Assembly (NCBI GenBank): GCA_050951545.1 | Contig: JBMNJG010000004.1 | Coordinates: 125,406-189,405 of the forward strand | Direction of reading: 5' to 3' | Length of the DNA stretch: 64,000 bases | Source: Limnochordia bacterium | GTDB lineage: Bacteria > Bacillota > Limnochordia > DTU080 | Part shown: in pieces, positions 17,624 to 38,720 of the stretch | Numbering within the stretch: the stretch's first letter is position 1 | Layout: each line of letters opens with the position of its first letter | Notes under the pieces: generated by a model | The model's input: the letters and a program-made list of their open reading frames with translations, nothing else | Told to the model about the DNA's origin: nothing | Database searches by the model: none | Translations under genes and position numbers: made by a program

Positions 17624-18901
17624 ATGACGCGTCCGATTCGCTGGTGTTTGGCACTGTACTTGGTGCTCGCTTTGGTTTGGATACCAGGGGCCTTGGCGAA
17701 GGAACAGGTGGTCTTGAAGTGGACCACATGCTGTGGGCAACTGGATCGTCACGAGCTGTTTCAGTCGTGGGCGCGCCGCTATGAATCTCGTAATCCGGGA
17801 GTTAAGGTGGAGTGGGAGTACCCTGCTGGGAGCTATGGGAACGTGTTGCTGACCCGGATCGTTGGCGGCGCGGGACCTGACGTCATGTGGATCGGGGGCG
17901 CCTACTCACAGTTAGCTGACCTATTCGCCTCTGTGGAAGACATGCGAACGCGCGCTGGGGGGCCGCTGCGTGAGGTCATGCCCCAGGTATTCCCTCTTTT
18001 CACTTGGGGAGGGAAGCTGGGTGCGGCACCTTACGGGGCGAACACGGTGCCGTTCTTTGTCAACCAACGCCTTTTCGCTGAAGCAGGTCTGAGAATACCT
18101 CCACCCAACTGGACCTGGGATGATTTCCTCGTCTTGGTCAAGCGTCTTACTGTGGATCTCGATGGCGATGGCCAGCCCGATCGATGGGGTTTTGACATCC
18201 GCTCCGGAGGATACCAGTTGACCGCGCTCTCCTGGGGAGGAGCACCCTTCTCGCCTGACGGGCGCAAGGTGGCCTTCAATAACCCCATCACGGTTGGGGC
18301 TACACAAACTCTCGCAGATCTAGCAAACAACAGACACGGCCCCTATCAGTTGCCAGCAGGCCGAGGTGACTTCGCGGCAGTGGCGAGGTCTGGCGTGGTG
18401 GCTGTCGTAGCGGGCGGTGTCTGGGGGGTTCCTGCTCTGCGTCAGTTGCCCGAGGATGAATGGGAGGGCATCGTCTTTCCTGCCTATGAATATCAGGGTG
18501 AGCGCTATCACGGCTCCTATCTGTCAGGTGAGGCGTGGGCGATCTCTAACACAACACCATACCCAGAAGAAGCACGGCGGTTCGTAGAGTTCCTGCTGGA
18601 GAAGGAGCAGATGCGTGAGTTCGCCCGTCTGGGCGGCATCATTCCGACCCAGCAGTCGGTGGCCCGGGAGTTCTTCCACCCATCGACCTCGAAGCCACAA
18701 AACATGGCGGCATTCTTGGATTGCCTCGAGGTGGGCAAGCCTCTATACAATATCCACCCCGCTGGAAATGACATCATCTCCCGGTCTGGTCCGGTCTGGT
18801 CAGAGCTGTGGGCAGGCAGAATGCCCGCCTCTGCGGCACTAGAACAGATGGAGGTGATCGGAAACGCCGTCTTGGCCGACTTTTGGGCAAAGAAGCAGTA
18901 A
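17624..18901 (+). CDS. ABC transporter substrate-binding protein (family 1), array copy 2
   Basis: Translation identical to copy 3. GGGGGG RBS. Secretory signal ALA|KEQ without a lipobox Cys. Confidence 0.75.
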   Translation: MTRPIRWCLALYLVLALVWIPGALAKEQVVLKWTTCCGQLDRHELFQSWARRYESRNPGVKVEWEYPAGSYGNVLLTRIVGGAGPDVMWIGGAYSQLADLFASVEDMRTRAGGPLREVMPQVFPLFTWGGKLGAAPYGANTVPFFVNQRLFAEAGLRIPPPNWTWDDFLVLVKRLTVDLDGDGQPDRWGFDIRSGGYQLTALSWGGAPFSPDGRKVAFNNPITVGATQTLADLANNRHGPYQLPAGRGDFAAVARSGVVAVVAGGVWGVPALRQLPEDEWEGIVFPAYEYQGERYHGSYLSGEAWAISNTTPYPEEARRFVEFLLEKEQMREFARLGGIIPTQQSVAREFFHPSTSKPQNMAAFLDCLEVGKPLYNIHPAGNDIISRSGPVWSELWAGRMPASAALEQMEVIGNAVLADFWAKKQ

Positions 18902-19103: not shown

Positions 19104-20381
19104 ATGACGCGTCCGATTCGCTGGTGTTTGGCACTGTACTTGGTGCTCGCTTTGGTTTGGATACCAGGGGCCTTGGCGAAGGAACAGGTGGTCTTGAAGT
19201 GGACCACATGCTGTGGGCAACTGGATCGTCACGAGCTGTTTCAGTCGTGGGCGCGCCGCTATGAATCTCGTAATCCGGGAGTTAAGGTGGAGTGGGAGTA
19301 CCCTGCTGGGAGCTATGGGAACGTGTTGCTGACCCGGATCGTTGGCGGCGCGGGACCTGACGTCATGTGGATCGGGGGCGCCTACTCACAGTTAGCTGAC
19401 CTATTCGCCTCTGTGGAAGACATGCGAACGCGCGCTGGGGGGCCGCTGCGTGAGGTCATGCCCCAGGTATTCCCTCTTTTCACTTGGGGAGGGAAGCTGG
19501 GTGCGGCACCTTACGGGGCGAACACGGTGCCGTTCTTTGTCAACCAACGCCTTTTCGCTGAAGCAGGTCTGAGAATACCTCCACCCAACTGGACCTGGGA
19601 TGATTTCCTCGTCTTGGTCAAGCGTCTTACTGTGGATCTCGATGGCGATGGCCAGCCCGATCGATGGGGTTTTGACATCCGCTCCGGAGGATACCAGTTG
19701 ACCGCGCTCTCCTGGGGAGGAGCACCCTTCTCGCCTGACGGGCGCAAGGTGGCCTTCAATAACCCCATCACGGTTGGGGCTACACAAACTCTCGCAGATC
19801 TAGCAAACAACAGACACGGCCCCTATCAGTTGCCAGCAGGCCGAGGTGACTTCGCGGCAGTGGCGAGGTCTGGCGTGGTGGCTGTCGTAGCGGGCGGTGT
19901 CTGGGGGGTTCCTGCTCTGCGTCAGTTGCCCGAGGATGAATGGGAGGGCATCGTCTTTCCTGCCTATGAATATCAGGGTGAGCGCTATCACGGCTCCTAT
20001 CTGTCAGGTGAGGCGTGGGCGATCTCTAACACAACACCATACCCAGAAGAAGCACGGCGGTTCGTAGAGTTCCTGCTGGAGAAGGAGCAGATGCGTGAGT
20101 TCGCCCGTCTGGGCGGCATCATTCCGACCCAGCAGTCGGTGGCCCGGGAGTTCTTCCACCCATCGACCTCGAAGCCACAAAACATGGCGGCATTCTTGGA
20201 TTGCCTCGAGGTGGGCAAGCCTCTATACAATATCCACCCCGCTGGAAATGACATCATCTCCCGGTCTGGTCCGGTCTGGTCAGAGCTGTGGGCAGGCAGA
20301 ATGCCCGCCTCTGCGGCACTAGAACAGATGGAGGTGATCGGAAACGCCGTCTTGGCCGACTTTTGGGCAAAGAAGCAGTAA
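19104..20381 (+). CDS. ABC transporter substrate-binding protein (family 1), array copy 3
   Basis: Identical to copy 2 at the sampled nucleotides and in the full translation. Confidence 0.75.
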   Translation: MTRPIRWCLALYLVLALVWIPGALAKEQVVLKWTTCCGQLDRHELFQSWARRYESRNPGVKVEWEYPAGSYGNVLLTRIVGGAGPDVMWIGGAYSQLADLFASVEDMRTRAGGPLREVMPQVFPLFTWGGKLGAAPYGANTVPFFVNQRLFAEAGLRIPPPNWTWDDFLVLVKRLTVDLDGDGQPDRWGFDIRSGGYQLTALSWGGAPFSPDGRKVAFNNPITVGATQTLADLANNRHGPYQLPAGRGDFAAVARSGVVAVVAGGVWGVPALRQLPEDEWEGIVFPAYEYQGERYHGSYLSGEAWAISNTTPYPEEARRFVEFLLEKEQMREFARLGGIIPTQQSVAREFFHPSTSKPQNMAAFLDCLEVGKPLYNIHPAGNDIISRSGPVWSELWAGRMPASAALEQMEVIGNAVLADFWAKKQ

Positions 20382-20583: not shown

Positions 20584-21861
20584 ATGACGCGTCCGATTCG
20601 CTGGTGTTTGGCACTGTACTTGGTGCTCGCTTTGGTTTGGATACCAGGGGCCTTGGCGAAGGAACAGGTGGTCTTGAAGTGGACCACATGCTGTGGGCAA
20701 CTGGATCGTCACGAGCTGTTTCAGTCGTGGGCGCGCCGCTATGAATCTCGTAATCCGGGAGTTAAGGTGGAGTGGGAGTACCCTGCTGGGAGCTATGGGA
20801 ACGTGTTGCTGACCCGGATCGTTGGCGGCGCGGGACCTGACGTCATGTGGATCGGGGGCGCCTACTCACAGTTAGCTGACCTATTCGCCTCTGTGGAAGA
20901 CATGCGAACGCGCGCTGGGGGGCCGCTGCGTGAGGTCATGCCCCAGGTATTCCCTCTTTTCACTTGGGGAGGGAAGCTGGGTGCGGCACCTTACGGGGCG
21001 AACACGGTGCCGTTCTTTGTCAACCAACGCCTTTTCGCTGAAGCAGGTCTGAGAATACCTCCACCCAACTGGACCTGGGATGATTTCCTCGTCTTGGTCA
21101 AGCGTCTTACTGTGGATCTCGATGGCGATGGCCAGCCCGATCGATGGGGTTTTGACATCCGCTCCGGAGGATACCAGTTGACCGCGCTCTCCTGGGGAGG
21201 AGCACCCTTCTCGCCTGACGGGCGCAAGGTGGCCTTCAATAACCCCATCACGGTTGGGGCTACACAAACTCTCGCAGATCTAGCAAACAACAGACACGGC
21301 CCCTATCAGTTGCCAGCAGGCCGAGGTGACTTCGCGGCAGTGGCGAGGTCTGGCGTGGTGGCTGTCGTAGCGGGCGGTGTCTGGGGGGTTCCTGCTCTGC
21401 GTCAGTTGCCCGAGGATGAATGGGAGGGCATCGTCTTTCCTGCCTATGAATATCAGGGTGAGCGCTATCACGGCTCCTATCTGTCAGGTGAGGCGTGGGC
21501 GATCTCTAACACAACACCATACCCAGAAGAAGCACGGCGGTTCGTAGAGTTCCTGCTGGAGAAGGAGCAGATGCGTGAGTTCGCCCGTCTGGGCGGCATC
21601 ATTCCGACCCAGCAGTCGGTGGCCCGGGAGTTCTTCCACCCATCGACCTCGAAGCCACAAAACATGGCGGCATTCTTGGATTGCCTCGAGGTGGGCAAGC
21701 CTCTATACAATATCCACCCCGCTGGAAATGACATCATCTCCCGGTCTGGTCCGGTCTGGTCAGAGCTGTGGGCAGGCAGAATGCCCGCCTCTGCGGCACT
21801 AGAACAGATGGAGGTGATCGGAAACGCCGTCTTGGCCGACTTTTGGGCGCAGAAAAAGTAG
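20584..21861 (+). CDS. ABC transporter substrate-binding protein (family 1), array copy 4
   Basis: Identical to copies 2 and 3 except the last 4 residues (WAQKK vs WAKKQ). Repeat identity ends at 21848. Confidence 0.75.
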   Translation: MTRPIRWCLALYLVLALVWIPGALAKEQVVLKWTTCCGQLDRHELFQSWARRYESRNPGVKVEWEYPAGSYGNVLLTRIVGGAGPDVMWIGGAYSQLADLFASVEDMRTRAGGPLREVMPQVFPLFTWGGKLGAAPYGANTVPFFVNQRLFAEAGLRIPPPNWTWDDFLVLVKRLTVDLDGDGQPDRWGFDIRSGGYQLTALSWGGAPFSPDGRKVAFNNPITVGATQTLADLANNRHGPYQLPAGRGDFAAVARSGVVAVVAGGVWGVPALRQLPEDEWEGIVFPAYEYQGERYHGSYLSGEAWAISNTTPYPEEARRFVEFLLEKEQMREFARLGGIIPTQQSVAREFFHPSTSKPQNMAAFLDCLEVGKPLYNIHPAGNDIISRSGPVWSELWAGRMPASAALEQMEVIGNAVLADFWAQKK

Positions 21862-30084: not shown

Positions 30085-33000
30085 CTAGCACTTCGTGTAG
30101 CCGCAAGCCTTGCAGACGAAGCAGCCCTCTTCGCGAGCAAGGGCGGCGATACCGCAGGTGGGGCACAGATCCATACCGGAGCCAAAATCAATCGTGACTT
30201 GGATGCCCTGACTGCGTTGACTGTCCTCTATATGCACCTTTAGTGTCTTGGCCAAGGCATCAGGCACCGACGAGATGCGATTGATACCAAAGCCAACTGA
30301 CGTAGAACCTCCGATGTCAGAGAGGTGTTTCACCAGCATCTGGACTTTCTCATCTGCGGTCTTCATCCCGGCGTGTTTCAGGAATAGGGTAGCCAGCCTT
30401 CCGAGTGCTTCAGACATCGCGGAGATGTCACTTCCTGCCTTGCCGATGTTGAGGAAGACTTCGATGGGATCGCCTTGATACTCGTTTACCGTAATGAACG
30501 CTTTGCCCAACGGCGTCAGCCACTCATATGTCGCACCAGACAATTTGTGAGGCCTACCGGGCCACCGACGCTCTCTTTCTGGCGCAGGTACATCGGCTGG
30601 AGGTGCTTGAGCAGGGGCCTCTTTGTGCGCTTCGTCGGGTGTTTCTTCCTTCTTGGTCAGCACCTGCTCATTGCGTGAACCGTCTCGATAGATGGTGACA
30701 CCTTTGCAGCCCAGTTCATAGGCGTACTCGTAGAGTTCCTTCGTTTGCTCGAGGCTATAGTGATTGGGCGCGTTGGCGGTCTTGCTGATGGAGGAGTCGG
30801 TCCACGCTTGTATGGCTGCCTGCACCTGAATATGCTCTTTCGGAGCCAGTTCCATGGCCGAGACAAAGTAGTCGGGTAGATTGTCGAGCTGGCTTTCGAG
30901 CTCGGGATGCTGCCTGAAATACTCAGCTACGATGCGTTCTTGCACCTCATTGACACCAAGGCGTCCTTTGCGCCAGTAGGTCCATGAGTAATAGGGTTCG
31001 ATGCCAGTACTAGTTCCAATCATCGTTCCTGTAGAGCCAGTTGGCGCCTGGGTGAGTACACACACATTGCGCATCCCTTTTTCCTCGATATGTGCTCGCA
31101 CGTGTTCCGGCAGCTTCTTAACGAACCCGCCTTGTAGGTACTTCTCTTTGTCAAATTTGGGAAAGGCGCCCTTTTCCGCCGACAGATTGGCACTTGCCGA
31201 ATACGCTTCCGTGGCTATGAACCGGTAAAGCTCGTCAATGAACTCGAGGCTTTCGGGCGAACCGTAGCGTATTCCCATACGGATGAGCATCTCGCCCAAG
31301 CCCATGGTACCCATGCCCACCCGGCGTTGCCCTTTCTGAACATCCTCGTTTTGGGGAAAGAAATACGGGGTGATGTCAATGATGTTGTCAAGGAAGCGCA
31401 CACCCGCATGGATGGCGCGACGCAATGACTCCCAATCTACACTAGCCTCGCCAATGGGACCTGCGGCGAAACGACTCAGGTTGATGTGTCCGAGATTGCA
31501 GACTCCCCAAGGGGGCAGGGGCTGTTCGGCACAGTTATGCACAATCAGTCCGTTGGCGCAGAAAGCGCTGGCCTGCTCTACCGTCAGATCATAGACCATC
31601 TCTTGGCCATCCGGCACAAGCGCCTTGAAAGTGGCCACAAAGCGCTCATCGCCAGTTTGGGGTGCCAATGCCTGGAGTTCGCTCTGTTTGTCCGAATCCA
31701 AGAGACCGATCTGTTCTTGAAGGCGCCTAAGGCTAGGGCCACTGATCTGTAACTGTGAGGAGGCACGAAGACGACCCAAGATACCGAAGTTGAGCAGCAA
31801 CAGCTGCACAGCTTGCAGAAACTGCTCCGAATCGCTCGCCAACGCCACTGCATTGCTCTCATTGTCGACAAACGCGTGGGCTGTGAACAGAGACTGTAGG
31901 AAGCCCATCTGCATCTCTCGGGTGCCCTGAAGTACGTGATAGGGTAGGTGGGAGCAGCTGGTGTCAGCGCCCAGGCTGCGGCCTAGCTCCAACGAACCGC
32001 TTTTACCGAAGGCTCCTCCCCGATTGTGTATGAGGATGCCGTCGCCGGGTGTCAGGTCTTGCGCTTGTACCCAGCCGCGATTGTCAGTGAGAAGACGATG
32101 GTCAGCAGTGAGGCGTAGTTCGAAACCTTCCTCGGTAGTGAGGCGGAACACGGGTTTGAACCCCGAAGCAAAAACCTCCGAAGCTGGTGTGAATGGTGGA
32201 GAGCCCAGGCGCGAATCCGTGGCGACGTTGAGAGCAGAATTGCGCAGATACAGATCATCGGTGCGCCAAAGCCCTTGATCTGTGTAAAGGATACTATCGC
32301 CAGTGACACATGGGTTGGTGCTGATCAGATCCTCGAAGTACCAGCTATTGGAGTACTCGTTCATACGCTCGAGAAAGACCACACCAGGTTCGGCGCTCAT
32401 CCACGCAGACTCCATGATGGTGTTCCATATTTCGCGAGCTTTCAGCGTACGATGTGTCTTGACTGGTTTGCCAAGCTTGCGCCATCGCTGCATGCTGCCG
32501 TCCCACAGTTCATCATACTCGGGGTCCTGCGTATCTGGGAACTCGAGGTTCCAGTTGGCGTCCTCTCTTACGGCTTCCATGAAGGCGTGGCTGATGGCAA
32601 CGGAGATATTGGCGTTATTGATGGCTTGCATGTCGCGCTTGGCCTTGATGAACTCCAAGAGATCAGGGTGCCAGTCTTCCAGAATAAGCATGAGGGCGCC
32701 TCTGCGGCTTCCGCCTTGCTCAACCAGGCCCGTAGCAAAGCTAAATAACGCCCCCCAGCTCACAGAGCCGGAGCTGCGTCCGTTGACCCCTGCAACATAA
32801 GACAGGCGCGGCCGCAGGGCAGAAAGGTTTATACCGACACCACCGCCTCGAGACATGATCTCCACCATGTTGCCCAGAGTATCGATGATCGCCTGTCGAG
32901 AGTCGATGCCACCATCACCGTCGGGGCGGATGGGGATGACGTAGCAGTTATAGGCTGTGAGATTCTGTCCCGTACCTAACATCGCGTTTATGCGCCCACC

Positions 33001-33432
33001 TGGGCTAAAACGAAAATCACCTAAGAGCCAGCGGAACTCCTTTCTCAGTTCAGCCTGCTTTGTTGGTTCCTCCACGGTCACCACGCTGCGCGCCATGCGA
33101 TCCCACATGTCTTCCGGGAGAAGCTCAAGCGGCTTATCTACTTTTTTGCGATCCTGAACGAAAAGCTCGCCCGAGCTTTTGAGCTCTATGGACAGCATGT
33201 CACCATCTATTGAGCGGACAACGCCCACGTCCTTTTGCGGAAACCGGGGGTCCTCCTTCACCAGTACGACGACGGTGTCGCCCGGTGCGATTCTCTTGTT
33301 AGGATCCTTCATGGCGTAGCGATCAAGGAAAATGAGTTCGGAGATGCCATCGAGAGTCACGCGCTCCTCCTCTGCGTCTGACGTGACAGATGGTGTGGGG
33401 TGAGGTTGGGAGTTGGGTAGAGATGATGTCAA
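30085..33432 (-). CDS. nrdJ: Adenosylcobalamin-dependent ribonucleoside-diphosphate reductase (class II, NrdJ) containing one intein
   Basis: The class II active-site motif TNP|C...AEQPLPPWGVCNLG is split by an insertion. C-terminal Zn-ribbon CPTCG...CKACG is present. Mature extein is about 856 aa. Confidence 0.85.
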   Translation of the reverse strand: MTSSLPNSQPHPTPSVTSDAEEERVTLDGISELIFLDRYAMKDPNKRIAPGDTVVVLVKEDPRFPQKDVGVVRSIDGDMLSIELKSSGELFVQDRKKVDKPLELLPEDMWDRMARSVVTVEEPTKQAELRKEFRWLLGDFRFSPGGRINAMLGTGQNLTAYNCYVIPIRPDGDGGIDSRQAIIDTLGNMVEIMSRGGGVGINLSALRPRLSYVAGVNGRSSGSVSWGALFSFATGLVEQGGSRRGALMLILEDWHPDLLEFIKAKRDMQAINNANISVAISHAFMEAVREDANWNLEFPDTQDPEYDELWDGSMQRWRKLGKPVKTHRTLKAREIWNTIMESAWMSAEPGVVFLERMNEYSNSWYFEDLISTNPCVTGDSILYTDQGLWRTDDLYLRNSALNVATDSRLGSPPFTPASEVFASGFKPVFRLTTEEGFELRLTADHRLLTDNRGWVQAQDLTPGDGILIHNRGGAFGKSGSLELGRSLGADTSCSHLPYHVLQGTREMQMGFLQSLFTAHAFVDNESNAVALASDSEQFLQAVQLLLLNFGILGRLRASSQLQISGPSLRRLQEQIGLLDSDKQSELQALAPQTGDERFVATFKALVPDGQEMVYDLTVEQASAFCANGLIVHNCAEQPLPPWGVCNLGHINLSRFAAGPIGEASVDWESLRRAIHAGVRFLDNIIDITPYFFPQNEDVQKGQRRVGMGTMGLGEMLIRMGIRYGSPESLEFIDELYRFIATEAYSASANLSAEKGAFPKFDKEKYLQGGFVKKLPEHVRAHIEEKGMRNVCVLTQAPTGSTGTMIGTSTGIEPYYSWTYWRKGRLGVNEVQERIVAEYFRQHPELESQLDNLPDYFVSAMELAPKEHIQVQAAIQAWTDSSISKTANAPNHYSLEQTKELYEYAYELGCKGVTIYRDGSRNEQVLTKKEETPDEAHKEAPAQAPPADVPAPERERRWPGRPHKLSGATYEWLTPLGKAFITVNEYQGDPIEVFLNIGKAGSDISAMSEALGRLATLFLKHAGMKTADEKVQMLVKHLSDIGGSTSVGFGINRISSVPDALAKTLKVHIEDSQRSQGIQVTIDFGSGMDLCPTCGIAALAREEGCFVCKACGYTKC
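31534..32310 (-). other. Intein (259 aa) inserted in the NrdJ active-site loop
   Basis: Begins with Cys (CVTGDSILYT) immediately after the extein TNP. Ends with ...GLIVHN followed by the +1 extein Cys (CAEQPL). The internal FLQSLFTAHAFVD may be a degenerate LAGLIDADG remnant. Confidence 0.8.
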
Positions 33433-33479: not shown

Positions 33480-33965
33480 CTATCGTGAGTCTTCGTCGGG
33501 CTGGCTATGATGGAGCAGCTTCTGGAGTTCGTTCATGAAGCGCTGGATGTCGCCAAACTGGCGATACACTGATGCAAAGCGTACGTAGGCGACCTCATCG
33601 ATTTCGCGCAGCCCTTGCATTACCAGTTCGCCTACACTTCGTGAAGAGATCTCTTGCTCCATGCGATTGCGCAAGGTTGTCTCTACCTGATCGACAAGGT
33701 TCTCTAGGGTGGCTAGGGCAACTGGTCGCTTCTCACACGCGGTGAGGAGGCCGCGCAGTATCTTCTGGCGATCAAACTCCTCGCGCCTACCGTCCTTCTT
33801 GATCACCATGAGCGGTACAGACTCCACACGTTCGTAGGTAGTAAAGCGACCGTCACAACACGCACAGGCGCGACGGCGCCGAATGGCACGACCTTCGGAC
33901 GTTGGACGGGAGTCAACGACGCGGCTGTCCACTTCTCCACAGTAAGGGCATTTCACTATGTACAC
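33480..33965 (-). CDS. nrdR: Transcriptional repressor NrdR
   Basis: Zn-ribbon CPYCG...CxxC followed by an ATP-cone. GTG start at 33965. Sits directly upstream of nrdJ on the same strand. Confidence 0.85.
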
Positions 33966-34635
33966 CTGCTAGCACAACATATGGTACCCAGATCAGTATA
34001 GACCCCTACATCTTGACCGTCAAAAGAGATTAGATCACGTTTGGATGTGTCTGACTCCCATTTTCGCGTGCGCAGGAGCTTTTGCTCGCTATCTTGGACA
34101 GACTACAGTAGTGGTCCAGAGGAGTACGCATGCCCGCACAGCATCACATGATCCTCTGGGGAGGTGAGTGTTCATGGGAAACATAGGCACATACGATGCT
34201 TTGTTACGTATAGGCACCGGCGCTTTGGCCTTGGCGTGGGCGAGTAGCCGATCCCGCTGGAGCGGGATTACGTCGCTTGTCGCAACTTGTGGCGCTGTGC
34301 TTGTCGGGGAAGGCATCACTCGTTTCAGCCCTCTCTATGCTGTCATGTCTCTGACAACTGTCGAGGATGAGGGAGAAAAGGTGATCTTGCGTGTGGGCCC
34401 GGTGACCTATCGCCGCCGCCCCCATAGTTCGAGAGCTGGATGCACGCTATGGGGCGTGACTCAAGACACGACCCTGCTGACGAATCACCTGAGCTCAGTT
34501 CGCTGTCGGCGAACAAGACGGACTGGCATTCACCGCGACGATGGGAGCCTACTTGACCTAGTGGCAGGGAAAGCGCGCCAGATGTGGAAGAACCAGAGCG
34601 TGCGCAAAGCAGCTCAGGGAGGGTCAGGTAATAGT

Positions 34636-36084
34636 ATGGCAAATATCGATCAGCTTCGTAATACATGGAATCAGCTTTACCAGGAGAATTTGTCCGAAGG
34701 GTTCGCCGCTGTGCGCGACTTGCCAGGTGTAGTGGTGGGTATTCACTCAGTCATCGACGGACTCAAGCGCCTCGATGTCGCTCAGCTCGAACAGGTTTTG
34801 GCGGACGATCCAGACTTGGCGGATGCTGCTCTGGAGGCGAGCGAAAAGGAGCTTGTGCCAGGCGAGATCAACACCCCGCGCGATTTTATCATTGGGTTGT
34901 TCACATCCTTTAGTCGGGGCAAGGCCCTGCAGCTTATGATTCGGCAAGAGTCAGCCTTTAATTGGGCACTGGAGAAACTCGGCTATGACTTTCTCCGTAT
35001 GGGTGGTACTTCGGGTAACATGGCCAACTCGTTGTCACCGCTGGGTTTTCCCATGGTGGTCTACGCCAATCCGCTCACACGTGAGTTGGCCGAGCTTTTC
35101 GTCGACAGGCCGAACTTGAAGGTGTTGGCCGCTGATGGCACCCCGAAGCCGCCAAAAGAAGCTGCTCAAGGCGAGGGTATCAAGGCGCTGCACCTGATCG
35201 TGGAGTATTCCACTGGCGACACTGTCACTGTGAAGGGCAAGAAGATCACCACGCCACGGGCCAATCGGTTCATTGCCGCCTGGAACCCTGTCAACAATAA
35301 GTTGCAGATTGATCCCACATGGAAGACGAATTTCCTAGCTATGGCAGATCAGGTCAGTCACTTTGTGGTCTCCGGTTTCCATATTCTCTCGGAGCGCTAT
35401 CCGGATGGTACCACGTATGCGGACTATCTGGCTCCTGTAGGCGAGTACCTGGCCGAGGTGCGCGCTCGCCACCCGCATCTGCGCCTGCACTATGAGTTTG
35501 CCAGCATCGCGAGCTCACATATCCGTCGCGGCATCCTCAAAGACATCTTGCCAAGAGTGCACAGTCTTGGACTCAATGAGGTAGAGCTGGCAGCTGTGCT
35601 AGACGACATCGGTGCAGTCGAAGAGGCTGCGGCCATGCGCAGGGAGGAAGGCATGGCGGCTATTCTCAAGGGTATGGATCGGTTGATGCGCCATACAGGT
35701 CTCGATCGCATTCAGCTGCATGATTTGGGCTACTACCTCACCTTGGTTCGTCCTGGCTATGCACCGCAGGAGAAGACGCGTACGGGCCTGATCTTGGCGG
35801 CGACTCTGGCAGCGAGCCGCACAGCAACGGGCAAGGTAGGTACTGAGGCTGAGATACGACAAGGCCTAGAGTTCCCGTTCATGGATGCCGCTCTTAAGAA
35901 GGCTGCGGAGATCAGCGAGTTTATCGGTGACGAGCAGTTGACGAAGACGGGTCTGGGCACGTGGAAGGACTGGCAGGTTGCCTATTTGCCGACCCGCGTG
36001 GTACCAAAGCCAGTGCTGACTGTAGGCCTGGGCGACCTAATCTCCGCATCGGCGTTCACAGTGGGCAGTCCTACCCACGCCTAG
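34636..36084 (+). CDS. ADP-dependent sugar kinase family protein (ADP-PFK/ADP-GK-like)
   Basis: GGTSGNMANSLSPLG and the C-terminal TVGLGDLISASAF motif, both characteristic of ADP-dependent PFK/GK. GGGAGGG RBS lies before ATG 34636. Continuous in frame with an upstream DUF2892-like segment (see findings). Confidence 0.65.
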   Translation: MANIDQLRNTWNQLYQENLSEGFAAVRDLPGVVVGIHSVIDGLKRLDVAQLEQVLADDPDLADAALEASEKELVPGEINTPRDFIIGLFTSFSRGKALQLMIRQESAFNWALEKLGYDFLRMGGTSGNMANSLSPLGFPMVVYANPLTRELAELFVDRPNLKVLAADGTPKPPKEAAQGEGIKALHLIVEYSTGDTVTVKGKKITTPRANRFIAAWNPVNNKLQIDPTWKTNFLAMADQVSHFVVSGFHILSERYPDGTTYADYLAPVGEYLAEVRARHPHLRLHYEFASIASSHIRRGILKDILPRVHSLGLNEVELAAVLDDIGAVEEAAAMRREEGMAAILKGMDRLMRHTGLDRIQLHDLGYYLTLVRPGYAPQEKTRTGLILAATLAASRTATGKVGTEAEIRQGLEFPFMDAALKKAAEISEFIGDEQLTKTGLGTWKDWQVAYLPTRVVPKPVLTVGLGDLISASAFTVGSPTHA

Positions 36085-37229: not shown

Positions 37230-37402
37230 AACTCTTATCTAGAGTGGCAGAGGGACTGGCCCGATGAAGCCCGGCAACCGGCAACCCGTGTGGTTGTGTC
37301 ATGGTGCTAATTCCTGCAGGATCACAGATCCTGGAAGATGAGAGGGAGTCTGCAGATGATTTTTCGTCAATATGCCTCTCCCTTTCTCAGGAGAGGTTTT
37401 TT
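37230..37402 (+). ncRNA. SAM-I (S-box) riboswitch with terminator expression platform
   Basis: CTCTTATCtAGAGtGGcaGAGGGACTGGCCCGATGAAGCCCGGCAACC...GGTGCTAATTCCTGCAG...GATGAGAGG matches the S-box consensus. The terminator CCTCTCC-loop-GGAGAGG+TTTTTT lies at 37374-37402. Confidence 0.85.
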
Positions 37403-37430
37403 GCGTGCCAGATCAAGGAGGTCAACACCG

Positions 37431-38720
37431 ATGACATCAGCAAGCGAGTATCATTTCGATACACTAGCGGTTCATGCAGGTCAGGAGCCCGATCCTACGA
37501 CGGGTTCATGTGCGGTGCCCATTTACCAGACTGCGGCGTATGTCTTTCGCGATGCCGAGCACGCGGCCGATCTTTTCGCCCTCGAGCAGTCCGGTTACAT
37601 CTACAGCCGCTTGTCGAACCCCACGACCGCGGTCTTTGAAAGGCGCATGGCTACGCTAGAGGGAGGCGTCGGCGCCTTGGCAGTGGGGGCCGGACAGACT
37701 GCAGAGCTGTTCGCTGTGTGCAACATCGCTGGCGCAGGGGATGAGATCATCTCTTCAGCCAGTCTGTACGGCGGCACTTACACGCTATTTGGCAACACAC
37801 TGCGCAGGCTCGGCGTCACGGTTAAGTTTGTGGAACCCGGTGATCCGGAGAGCTTCCGCAGCGCCATCGGTCCGCATACCCGAGCTATCTATGCGGAGAC
37901 AATTGGTAACCCCAGGCTGGATGTGCTGGATATTGAGGCTGTTGCCAGCGTTGCGCATGAGAATGGGATTCCGCTTATCGTCGACAACACATTCGCTACG
38001 CCATATCTGTGCCGTCCCTTGGAGTGGGGAGCCGACGTCGTCATCCATTCCGCCACGAAGTGGATCGGCGGTCATGGCAGTTCGATTGGCGGAGTGATTG
38101 TCGATGGTGGCCGTTTCGCCTGGGACAATGGCAAATTCCCCGAGTTAACCCAGCCCGATAGCAGCTATCATGGCGTGGTCTACACAGAGCATTTCGGGCC
38201 CGCCGCTTATATTGCGAAGTGCCGTCTGCAGCTCATGCGAGACATGGGCGGGCCGCTCGCGCCATTCCACAGTTTCCTCTTTCTTCAGGGCCTCGAGACC
38301 TTGGCTGTACGAATGGAACGCCATGCCCGAAATGCTCAGGCAGTAGCACGTTTTCTCTCTGAGCACCCTGCCGTTAACTGGGTCAGTTATCCCGGGCTGC
38401 CAAGTCACGCCTCTTTTGCTCTAGCTCAAAAGTACTTGCCTCAAGGTGGTGGAGCTGTGGTCACGTTCGGTATCCGGGGTGGCAGGGAGGCTGGACGACG
38501 CTTCATTGGCGCTCTCGAGCTATTCGCTCTTGTAGCCAACGTGGGCGACACCCGATCACTCGTCATTCATCCAGCATCGACAACGCACCACCAGCTCACA
38601 CGCGAGGAGCAGGCGGCCAGCGGCGTAAGCGAGGATTTGATTCGGCTCTCAGTTGGCATCGAAAACGAACGGGATATCCTCGCAGATCTGGACCAGGCTT
38701 TGAGGCGAGCGGTCTCCTAA
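37431..38720 (+). CDS. metY: O-acetylhomoserine aminocarboxypropyltransferase (O-acetylhomoserine sulfhydrylase)
   Basis: Opens [21 protein letters not shown]-lysine ATKWIGGHG. Start reset to ATG 37431 with AAGGAGG RBS. The track ORF upstream is riboswitch sequence. Confidence 0.85.

Follow-up and report, generated by a model that had tools for sequence, protein, structure and literature searches.

A probable class 1 intein with a decayed LAGLIDADG homing endonuclease at the thiyl-radical cysteine of NrdJ in a Limnochordia bacterium

The nrdJ gene, its insert and the insertion point

The 64,000-nt stretch of DNA analysed here, which we call the window, comes from a Limnochordia bacterium (assembly GCA_050951545.1, contig JBMNJG010000004.1, positions 125,406 to 189,405) and contains nrdJ, a gene for a ribonucleotide reductase (RNR) that is interrupted by a putative intein. 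The nrdJ precursor open reading frame (ORF; 30085..33432, minus strand) encodes 1115 amino acids (aa) with the intein, is uninterrupted and in frame, and is recognized by NrdJ models. Its whole product matched Pfam Ribonuc_red_lgC (E=3.6e-115) over residues 163-915, in a match that crosses the insert, as well as TSCPD (2e-9), and scored 557.5 bits with the NCBIfam model TIGR02504 NrdJ_Z (cut-off 399.95). The host protein is predicted to be a class II (adenosylcobalamin/B12-dependent) RNR, NrdJ, with the RNR barrel. The gene starts with TTG, and GAAGGAGGA occurs 9 nt 5' of this codon, within the gap that separates nrdJ from nrdR; an alternative, later GTG start would give a product of 1091 aa, as annotated in the homologue P0007.

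The insert is a segment of 259 codons (31534..32310, minus strand) that runs from Cys1 to His258-Asn259. An earlier note on this DNA had placed it at exactly these coordinates and had given no strand; the plus strand of this interval contains many stops, and the minus strand is an open 259-codon segment translated as CVTGDSILYT...SAFCANGLIVHN. The N-extein (32311..33432, minus strand; 374 aa) has the C-terminal end ...YFEDLISTNP, with Pro as the -1 residue. The C-extein (30085..31533, minus strand; 482 aa plus stop) begins CAEQPLPPWGVCNLG and comprises the remaining barrel, the TSCPD domain and a C-terminal Cys-rich tail, the junctions thus being ...YFEDLISTNP, intein, CAEQPLPPWGVCNLGHINL...

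Three regions make up the insert: an N-terminal splicing region (31996..32310, minus strand; intein aa 1-105), with Cys1 of block A and the block B motif TADH (T68/H71; 32098..32109, minus strand); a LAGLIDADG homing-endonuclease remnant (31666..31995, minus strand; aa 106-215), which consists of the second half-domain only; and a C-terminal splicing region (31534..31665, minus strand; aa 216-259), with MVYDLT (D241) as block F and GLIVHN (H258, N259) as block G. Adjoining it is the codon of the +1 Cys (31531..31533, minus strand), the presumed second splicing nucleophile and, once spliced, thiyl-radical cysteine of NrdJ. Four other ORFs overlap the intein (31486..31752 and 31961..32278 on the plus strand, 31584..31871 and 32052..32309 on the minus strand); they showed no Pfam match at E<=0.01 and were rejected as chance ORFs in DNA of 57% GC.

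Searched alone, the insert matched Pfam Intein_splicing (E=2e-15, 57.4 bits, cut-off 35.8) and, in a single match over aa 133-202, LAGLIDADG_3 (E=1.7e-10, 41.4 bits, cut-off 22.5), in addition to NCBIfam intein_Cterm (28.8 bits, cut-off 15.6). Mini-inteins from the PDB were also found by sequence, including those of Npu DnaB (4.9e-11), Spl DnaX (5.5e-7), Mtu RecA and Mxe GyrA. Matches of this strength lie well outside chance expectation. Residues C1, T68, H71, D241, H258 and N259 are invariant across a 15-member family alignment, and every class 1 signature residue is present. An AlphaFold2 model built with this 15-sequence alignment as input had a mean predicted local distance difference test (pLDDT) score of 93.7 and a predicted template modelling (pTM) score of 0.91, with no residue below 70.

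In a Foldseek comparison of the model with the PDB, the leading matches were all inteins. Those bearing an endonuclease spanned the whole model, such as TliVMA (7qsu; E=7.8e-12, template modelling (TM) score on the query 0.71) and PI-PfuI (1dq3; 0.70), and PhoVMA and PI-SceI (around 0.6 on the query) were also among the top matches. Mini-inteins spanned its splicing half, as with Mtu RecA (2in0; TM score on the target 0.88, root-mean-square deviation 2.2), and the RecA, DnaB, GyrA and gp41-1 inteins reached a Foldseek probability of 1.00 with TM scores on the target of up to 0.88. The insert is therefore modelled as adopting the HINT fold. Thus, the signature of Cys1, His-Asn and Cys+1 that the earlier note had read holds in its residues, and intein models and intein structures match it. 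PI-PfuI (from the Pyrococcus furiosus RNR, also of class II), TliVMA and PI-SceI share with the insert the predicted HINT plus LAGLIDADG alpha/beta fold (TM score on the query 0.60-0.71), but their endonucleases are active and have two motifs, their lengths are 360-454 aa and their sequence identity to it is 9-14%.

The insertion point was examined with phmmer, using the spliced active-site region against Thermotoga maritima NrdJ (1xje; E=7.5e-59). In this alignment, STNPCAEQPLPPWGVCNLG lies opposite S318-T-N320-P-C322-G-E324...C333-NLG, the T. maritima residue numbers being counted from the printed alignment. The spliced STNPCAEQ...CNLG retains the equivalents of N320, C322, E324 and C333, and the +1 Cys corresponds to C322. 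In T. maritima NrdJ, C322 is the thiyl-radical cysteine, N320 and E324 are catalytic residues and C333 belongs to the redox pair. The alignment of the +1 Cys with C322 agrees with the earlier placement of the insert at the thiyl-radical cysteine. Likewise, the active-site motif is split as proposed, but the exact point is TNP↓C (the arrow marks the insertion) and not TNPC↓G; of the two Cys residues, the first is part of the intein and the second, at +1, is the catalytic Cys of the extein. This +1 Cys would have a dual role, serving first as second splicing nucleophile and then as the radical cysteine of NrdJ.

Considering these data together, we regard it as very probable that the insert belongs to the canonical class 1 inteins, that it retains a decayed remnant of a LAGLIDADG homing endonuclease, and that it is located in NrdJ directly N-terminal to the thiyl-radical cysteine. 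Mini-inteins have a short linker in place of an endonuclease domain and measure ~130-200 aa; the element, with 259 aa and a confidently folded remnant of ~110 aa that scores as LAGLIDADG_3, is not one of them and falls between full-length inteins and mini-inteins. A profile of the family alignment matched only the nrdJ ORF in the window, a search that is specific to this family and so not exhaustive for further inteins.

RNR inteins located at the thiyl-radical cysteine have been on record for over two decades, and the Mth RIR1 mini-intein may share this site. The position directly N-terminal to this cysteine is the most frequently occupied RNR intein site (PMC2677866, Dassa et al. 2009), and RNRs, with 211 inteins in bacteria, rank second among hosts after DnaB (PMC4760082, Novikova et al.). 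The most populous allele is rir1-b (PMC4071816), which may correspond to this site. Contiguous RNR inteins (InBase RIR1 alleles; PMC2677866) resemble the one in the window in host family, NP↓C insertion point, use of the catalytic Cys as +1 residue and LAGLIDADG-type endonuclease, whereas half of the endonuclease domain is gone from the window copy. The metagenomic NrdJ-1 split intein (8ubs) shares the host enzyme and the active-site loop and gave a weak sequence match (E=0.019) as well as a fold match, but it is naturally split, has no endonuclease domain and has an insertion point that follows the catalytic Cys, one residue closer to the C-terminus (PMC2677866). The intein is thus an ordinary one, of a known kind, at a classical site and with the textbook pattern.

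Occupancy of the site among NrdJ homologues

We searched for homologues with the spliced 856-aa sequence, from which the insert had been removed, and listed the best 120 NrdJ homologues. The active-site motif was present in all 120; it was uninterrupted, as NPC[A/G]E, in 103 and carried an intein at exactly the same site in 17. Homologues with a taxonomic name, at 75% identity or less, point to Limnochordia-like Bacillota as the source of the gene. P0008 and P0009, with 85% identity to the window extein, have an empty site that reads TNPCGEQPLP, and the intein-less region of a P0008-type allele is ...ACNAAYCCNTGYGSNGARCAR... Following extein identity downwards, the site holds a 259-aa intein at 98%, is empty at 85% (two homologues), holds a 265-aa intein at 82% and a 400-aa intein of a different lineage at 80%, is again empty at 76% (two homologues), and holds inteins of 340 and 373 aa at 75%. 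Such interleaved presence and absence among close relatives is typical of the sporadic occurrence of mobile elements.

The distribution also bears on whether the 259 aa could be a lineage-specific domain of NrdJ and not an excised element. The earlier note had named alignment with intein-free homologues as the comparison capable of exposing a normal domain; in that alignment, intein-free homologues of up to 85% identity read STNPC[G/A]EQPLP, indicating that the insert is not a normal NrdJ domain. No such domain is found in the 103 of the 120 closest homologues that have NPC[A/G]E intact and are without the segment, including those at 85% identity, nor in T. maritima NrdJ, whose structure has been solved. 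Additionally, the segment is recognized by intein and LAGLIDADG models and resembles intein structures. The domain explanation can accordingly be dismissed for practical purposes.

Other elements were seen at this position. P0010, P0027 and P0029 carry a second intein lineage at the identical NP↓C site, of 400-414 aa and with the form CF[A/V]GSTR...IVAHQ↓C, the C-terminal residue being Gln and not Asn. A third intein type (CFHPDTRI...FVVHN, 376 aa) occupies the NP↓C site of P0107. Judging from these sequences, three intein lineages seem to compete for one site in one NrdJ clade. The same-site NrdJ intein of a Ktedonobacterales metagenome-assembled genome (MAG; L004:4001-5095) ends in GLVVSN↓C, with Ser and not His as penultimate residue. 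Finally, the contig L001:6001-9260 (ENA ERZ25039577 contig_100701) contains a related nrdJ with a same-site intein, frameshifted and distributed over at least 5 ORFs, due either to assembly error or to decay of the gene.

Endonuclease decay, evolutionary rates and gene neighbourhood

The same-site relatives include full-length inteins. P0001, P0026, P0028, P0031, P0040 and P0096 contain inteins of 355-373 aa with the motifs LGWLVGDG and FLQALF(T/S)(A/S)DG, and a scan of genome contigs found three distant same-site inteins (L002-L004, from Ardenticatenaceae, Actinomycetes and Ktedonobacterales MAGs) of ~366 aa with both LAGLIDADG motifs intact. The full-length NrdJ inteins from MAGs of Limnochordia-like Bacillota, Chloroflexota and Actinomycetes (P0026, P0028, P0031, P0096, P0001; L002-L004) are homologous to that of the window throughout (42-58% identity) and share its junctions, CVTGD...VVHN↓C[A/G]EQ. 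Conversely, they measure 355-373 aa and carry LGWLVGDG together with LFTADG or LFSADG, whereas the window copy, of 259 aa, has lost the first motif and has TAHA in the second.

The earlier note had suspected a degenerate LAGLIDADG remnant, and this proved correct: the intein has lost one half-domain, and His has replaced the catalytic Asp in the motif that is left. The window intein runs from ...LELGRSLG directly into ADTSCSHLPYHVL, without the first motif (LGWLVGDG) and the entire half-domain to which it belongs. In the alignment with the family profile, the window protein covers positions 1-115 and 187-363 and lacks ~71 match states (116-186), and another ~24 residues are gone from the second half of the endonuclease part in comparison with the 355-373-aa relatives. 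The degenerate surviving motif (block E), FLQSLFTAHAFVD (31864..31902, minus strand; intein residues 137-149), reads FLQALFTADGHV in relatives, and its core is LFTAHA versus LFTADG/LFSADG in the intact ones, with the metal-binding Asp changed to His and the Gly to Ala. Because one half-domain only is left and there is no catalytic acid, the homing endonuclease is, given the known requirements of LAGLIDADG enzymes, predicted to be inactive. Other family members, with lengths of 305-340 aa, show intermediate decay (LVGSR, LVGHG, TASG, SAAG, TADA). The clade seems to present the graded decay series expected from the homing cycle, which has been described in PMC7765530.

The closest copies allowed comparison of evolutionary rates. 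Loci L005-L008 (protein P0007) carry a 259-aa intein that differs from that of the window by 2 residues, both in the endonuclease remnant, and lies in the same neighbourhood; over the whole gene, the window and L005 differ by 5 synonymous and 2 non-synonymous changes, the latter both in the remnant and none in the exteins. L009 (P0016) has a 265-aa intein with 64% identity to that of the window, and its N- and C-exteins align at 90% and 85% identity. The P0016 intein shares the half-domain deletion, AFCANG and the neighbourhood, and differs in its motif, LFSVSG, and in a second deletion that is shorter by a few residues. Since the first half-domain deletion, like the Cys in AFCANG, is common to the window, P0007 and P0016, the deletion is older than the split between the window and L009 lineages.

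Against L009, the non-synonymous rate (dN) was 0.063 for the N-extein, 0.101 for the C-extein, 0.182 for the N-terminal splicing part, 0.215 for the C-terminal splicing part and, the highest value, 0.392 for the endonuclease remnant; synonymous sites in this comparison are saturated except in the C-terminal splicing part, which is short, and L005 is almost identical, so only relative dN is informative. The exteins thus evolve under strong purifying selection, constraint on the splicing module is moderate, and the remnant has the weakest constraint of all. That the exteins and, more weakly, the splicing parts are held by purifying selection implies a functional spliced enzyme.

These data, together with the state of the gene, also address the possibility of a dead intein in a pseudogene, in which the insert stays unspliced, nrdJ is non-functional and another RNR elsewhere in the genome supplies deoxynucleoside triphosphates (dNTPs). 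The endonuclease part is clearly decaying, the related contig L001 has nrdJ and its intein broken into several ORFs, and our view covers 64 kb of genome, leaving room for a second RNR elsewhere. However, the 1115-codon ORF is free of stops and frameshifts, all splicing residues are intact and invariant, extein dN is 0.06-0.10 with saturated synonymous rate (dS) against L009, with zero non-synonymous extein changes against L005, and nrdR-nrdJ synteny is conserved in L005-L008. A pseudogene is, consequently, highly improbable.

We also looked for a foreign-DNA signal by comparing the composition of intein, exteins and window. The intein (GC 56.2%, GC at third codon positions (GC3) 61.0%) resembles the exteins (GC 55.1%, GC3 63.6%) and the window (GC 57.1%), with no sign of recent acquisition by these measures, and this host-like composition fits long residence. 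A search with the intein sequence in an index of 5.8 billion proteins returned 6 matching proteins only; this intein lineage is thinly sampled, a matter of sampling and not of kind.

From these observations, the following history can be proposed. The intein would have entered the NrdJ site by homing, a mobile past being suggested by the existence of same-site relatives with both LAGLIDADG motifs intact. Endonuclease function would then have been lost through deletion of a half-domain and loss of the catalytic Asp. It would now persist by vertical inheritance, at a late stage of the homing cycle, because any inexact removal would ruin an active site that is essential. The sequence comparisons fit an intein that has long been resident, is inherited vertically, no longer moves and still has to splice.

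As the earlier note had stated, nrdR is immediately upstream of nrdJ. It lies on the same strand, at a distance of 47 nt and outside the intein (33480..33965, minus strand; 161 aa as listed), and its product matched Zn_ribbon_NrdR (4.6e-18) and ATP-cone (1.3e-24). Upstream of nrdR (33966..34030, minus strand), a promoter-like TTGACG-17 nt-TATACT was noticed by eye, and just downstream of it GTACCATATGTTGTGC agrees, also by eye, in 11/16 positions with the NrdR-box consensus. An Rfam scan of the whole window detected no RNA element at nrdR or nrdJ, its sole match being a SAM-I riboswitch (RF00162; 37232..37344, plus strand; 95.8 bits, E=8e-22) directly upstream of the ORF 37338..38720.

In L005-L008, synteny comprises a YgaP-like transmembrane gene, nrdR, nrdJ and an MTS methyltransferase gene, and in L005-L007 it extends to genes for a GFO/IDH/MocA oxidoreductase, a sugar-binding protein and GH31. 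Divergent from nrdR in the window, the ORF 34168..36084 (plus strand) belongs to the ADP-dependent phosphofructokinase/glucokinase family (Pfam ADP_PFK_GK, 2.5e-72); a YgaP-like transmembrane segment precedes the ADP_PFK_GK part, and the two are separate genes in L005. This family is known mostly from Archaea and eukaryotes. The window further contains three tandem ORFs of 425 aa each (17624..18901, 19104..20381 and 20584..21861, plus strand), with starts 1480 nt apart and the look of a triplicated gene; the syntenic region of L005 holds a sugar-binding protein (SBP_bac_1) of 425 aa.

Splicing, its possible regulation and significance

The conserved residues point to the standard four-step class 1 pathway. 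The 1115-aa precursor would be translated whole, and Cys1, helped by Thr68 and His71 of block B, would carry out an N-S acyl shift at its bond with Pro(-1). Trans-thioesterification would follow, with the +1 Cys attacking the thioester to give a branched intermediate. Asn259 would then cyclize with the help of His258 and of Asp241 in block F, releasing the 259-aa intein, and an S-N shift would restore a normal Pro-Cys peptide bond. The expected products are an 856-aa NrdJ, in which the finger-loop motif STNPCAEQPL is contiguous and the predicted Pro-Cys junction peptide is STNPCAEQPLPPWG, and the free 259-aa intein. As the earlier note had stated, the unspliced precursor should be inactive, because 259 residues interrupt its catalytic finger loop.

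Some observations weigh against a canonical intein with a decayed endonuclease. The NCBIfam model intein_Nterm scored 21.2 bits, slightly below its cut-off of 24.5. For many inteins, natural and engineered, a Pro in the -1 position is unfavourable (PMC6486613), and here it could leave room for slow or condition-dependent splicing. In the AlphaFold2 model the remnant still folds confidently, with block means of 89-98, and in the comparison with L009 its non-synonymous divergence (pN ~0.31) is below the synonymous one (pS ~0.77), so that it is not neutral; being both confidently folded and non-neutral, the remnant could keep a residual structural or other role. As to the first junction, a native Pro at -1 is common to all inteins at this site, which have evidently adapted to it.

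The earlier note had speculated that splicing could act as a checkpoint. In this explanation, the intein has been domesticated and its splicing is gated by redox state or temperature, forming a post-translational switch on dNTP supply; oxidation would tie Cys1 to Cys+1, Cys251 or Cys119 by a disulfide, and NrdJ would stay an inactive precursor until conditions became reducing. The intein has three cysteines (1, 119 and 251) in addition to Cys+1, and Cys251, in AFCANG on the block G strand, occurs only in the window/P0007/P0016 lineage, relatives having V, A, I or T there. The immobile intein has been kept across a divergence with saturated dS, and Pro-1 may slow the first splicing step. Precedents exist in the Pyrococcus horikoshii RadA intein, with temperature-conditional splicing, in the Mycobacterium smegmatis DnaB intein, where a Cys-Cys disulfide formed under H2O2 stalls splicing (PMC6195587), and in the Aquifex R2 intein, which improves iron loading (PMC8772380).

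Nevertheless, nothing specific to this NrdJ intein supports regulation. Its retention is fully accounted for by the difficulty of a precise deletion from an essential active site, and it is dispensable, as relatives at 85% identity have none. Any intein with Cys1 and Cys+1 is oxidizable in principle, and cysteines alone are therefore no evidence of gating. The M. smegmatis DnaBi1 intein (PMC6195587) likewise resides in a replication-related enzyme and has cysteines capable of an inhibitory disulfide, but it is of class 3, its host is a helicase and its switch was proven experimentally, whereas the window intein is likened to it by the presence of cysteines alone. We thus consider a domesticated regulatory intein unlikely. 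Similarly, it is quite unlikely that the immobile intein has been co-opted such that the folded half-domain, and Cys251 near the splice junctions, make splicing redox-conditional and release the radical cysteine of NrdJ only when conditions are reducing. If true, redox-conditional splicing would be a post-translational gate on dNTP synthesis on top of transcriptional control by NrdR, and the known cases of conditional protein splicing would gain one in an RNR.

For the canonical class 1 intein that we favour, the consequences are more modest, since there is little new biology in this intein. They concern annotation in the first place, where the true product is an 856-aa NrdJ and automatic pipelines can misname such precursors. 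The whole NrdJ precursor of P0014, a 75%-identical homologue of 1247 aa from a Limnochordia bacterium MAG, is named 'LAGLIDADG family homing endonuclease' by NCBI because of its embedded intein. The element is also a possible engineering scaffold, being compact and natively tolerant of a -1 Pro, which many engineered inteins handle badly (PMC6486613). For the family, the site offers a snapshot of the homing cycle: in one NrdJ clade it is found empty, with inteins whose endonuclease is intact or with inteins in graded decay (259-373 aa), and two further lineages occur at the same site.

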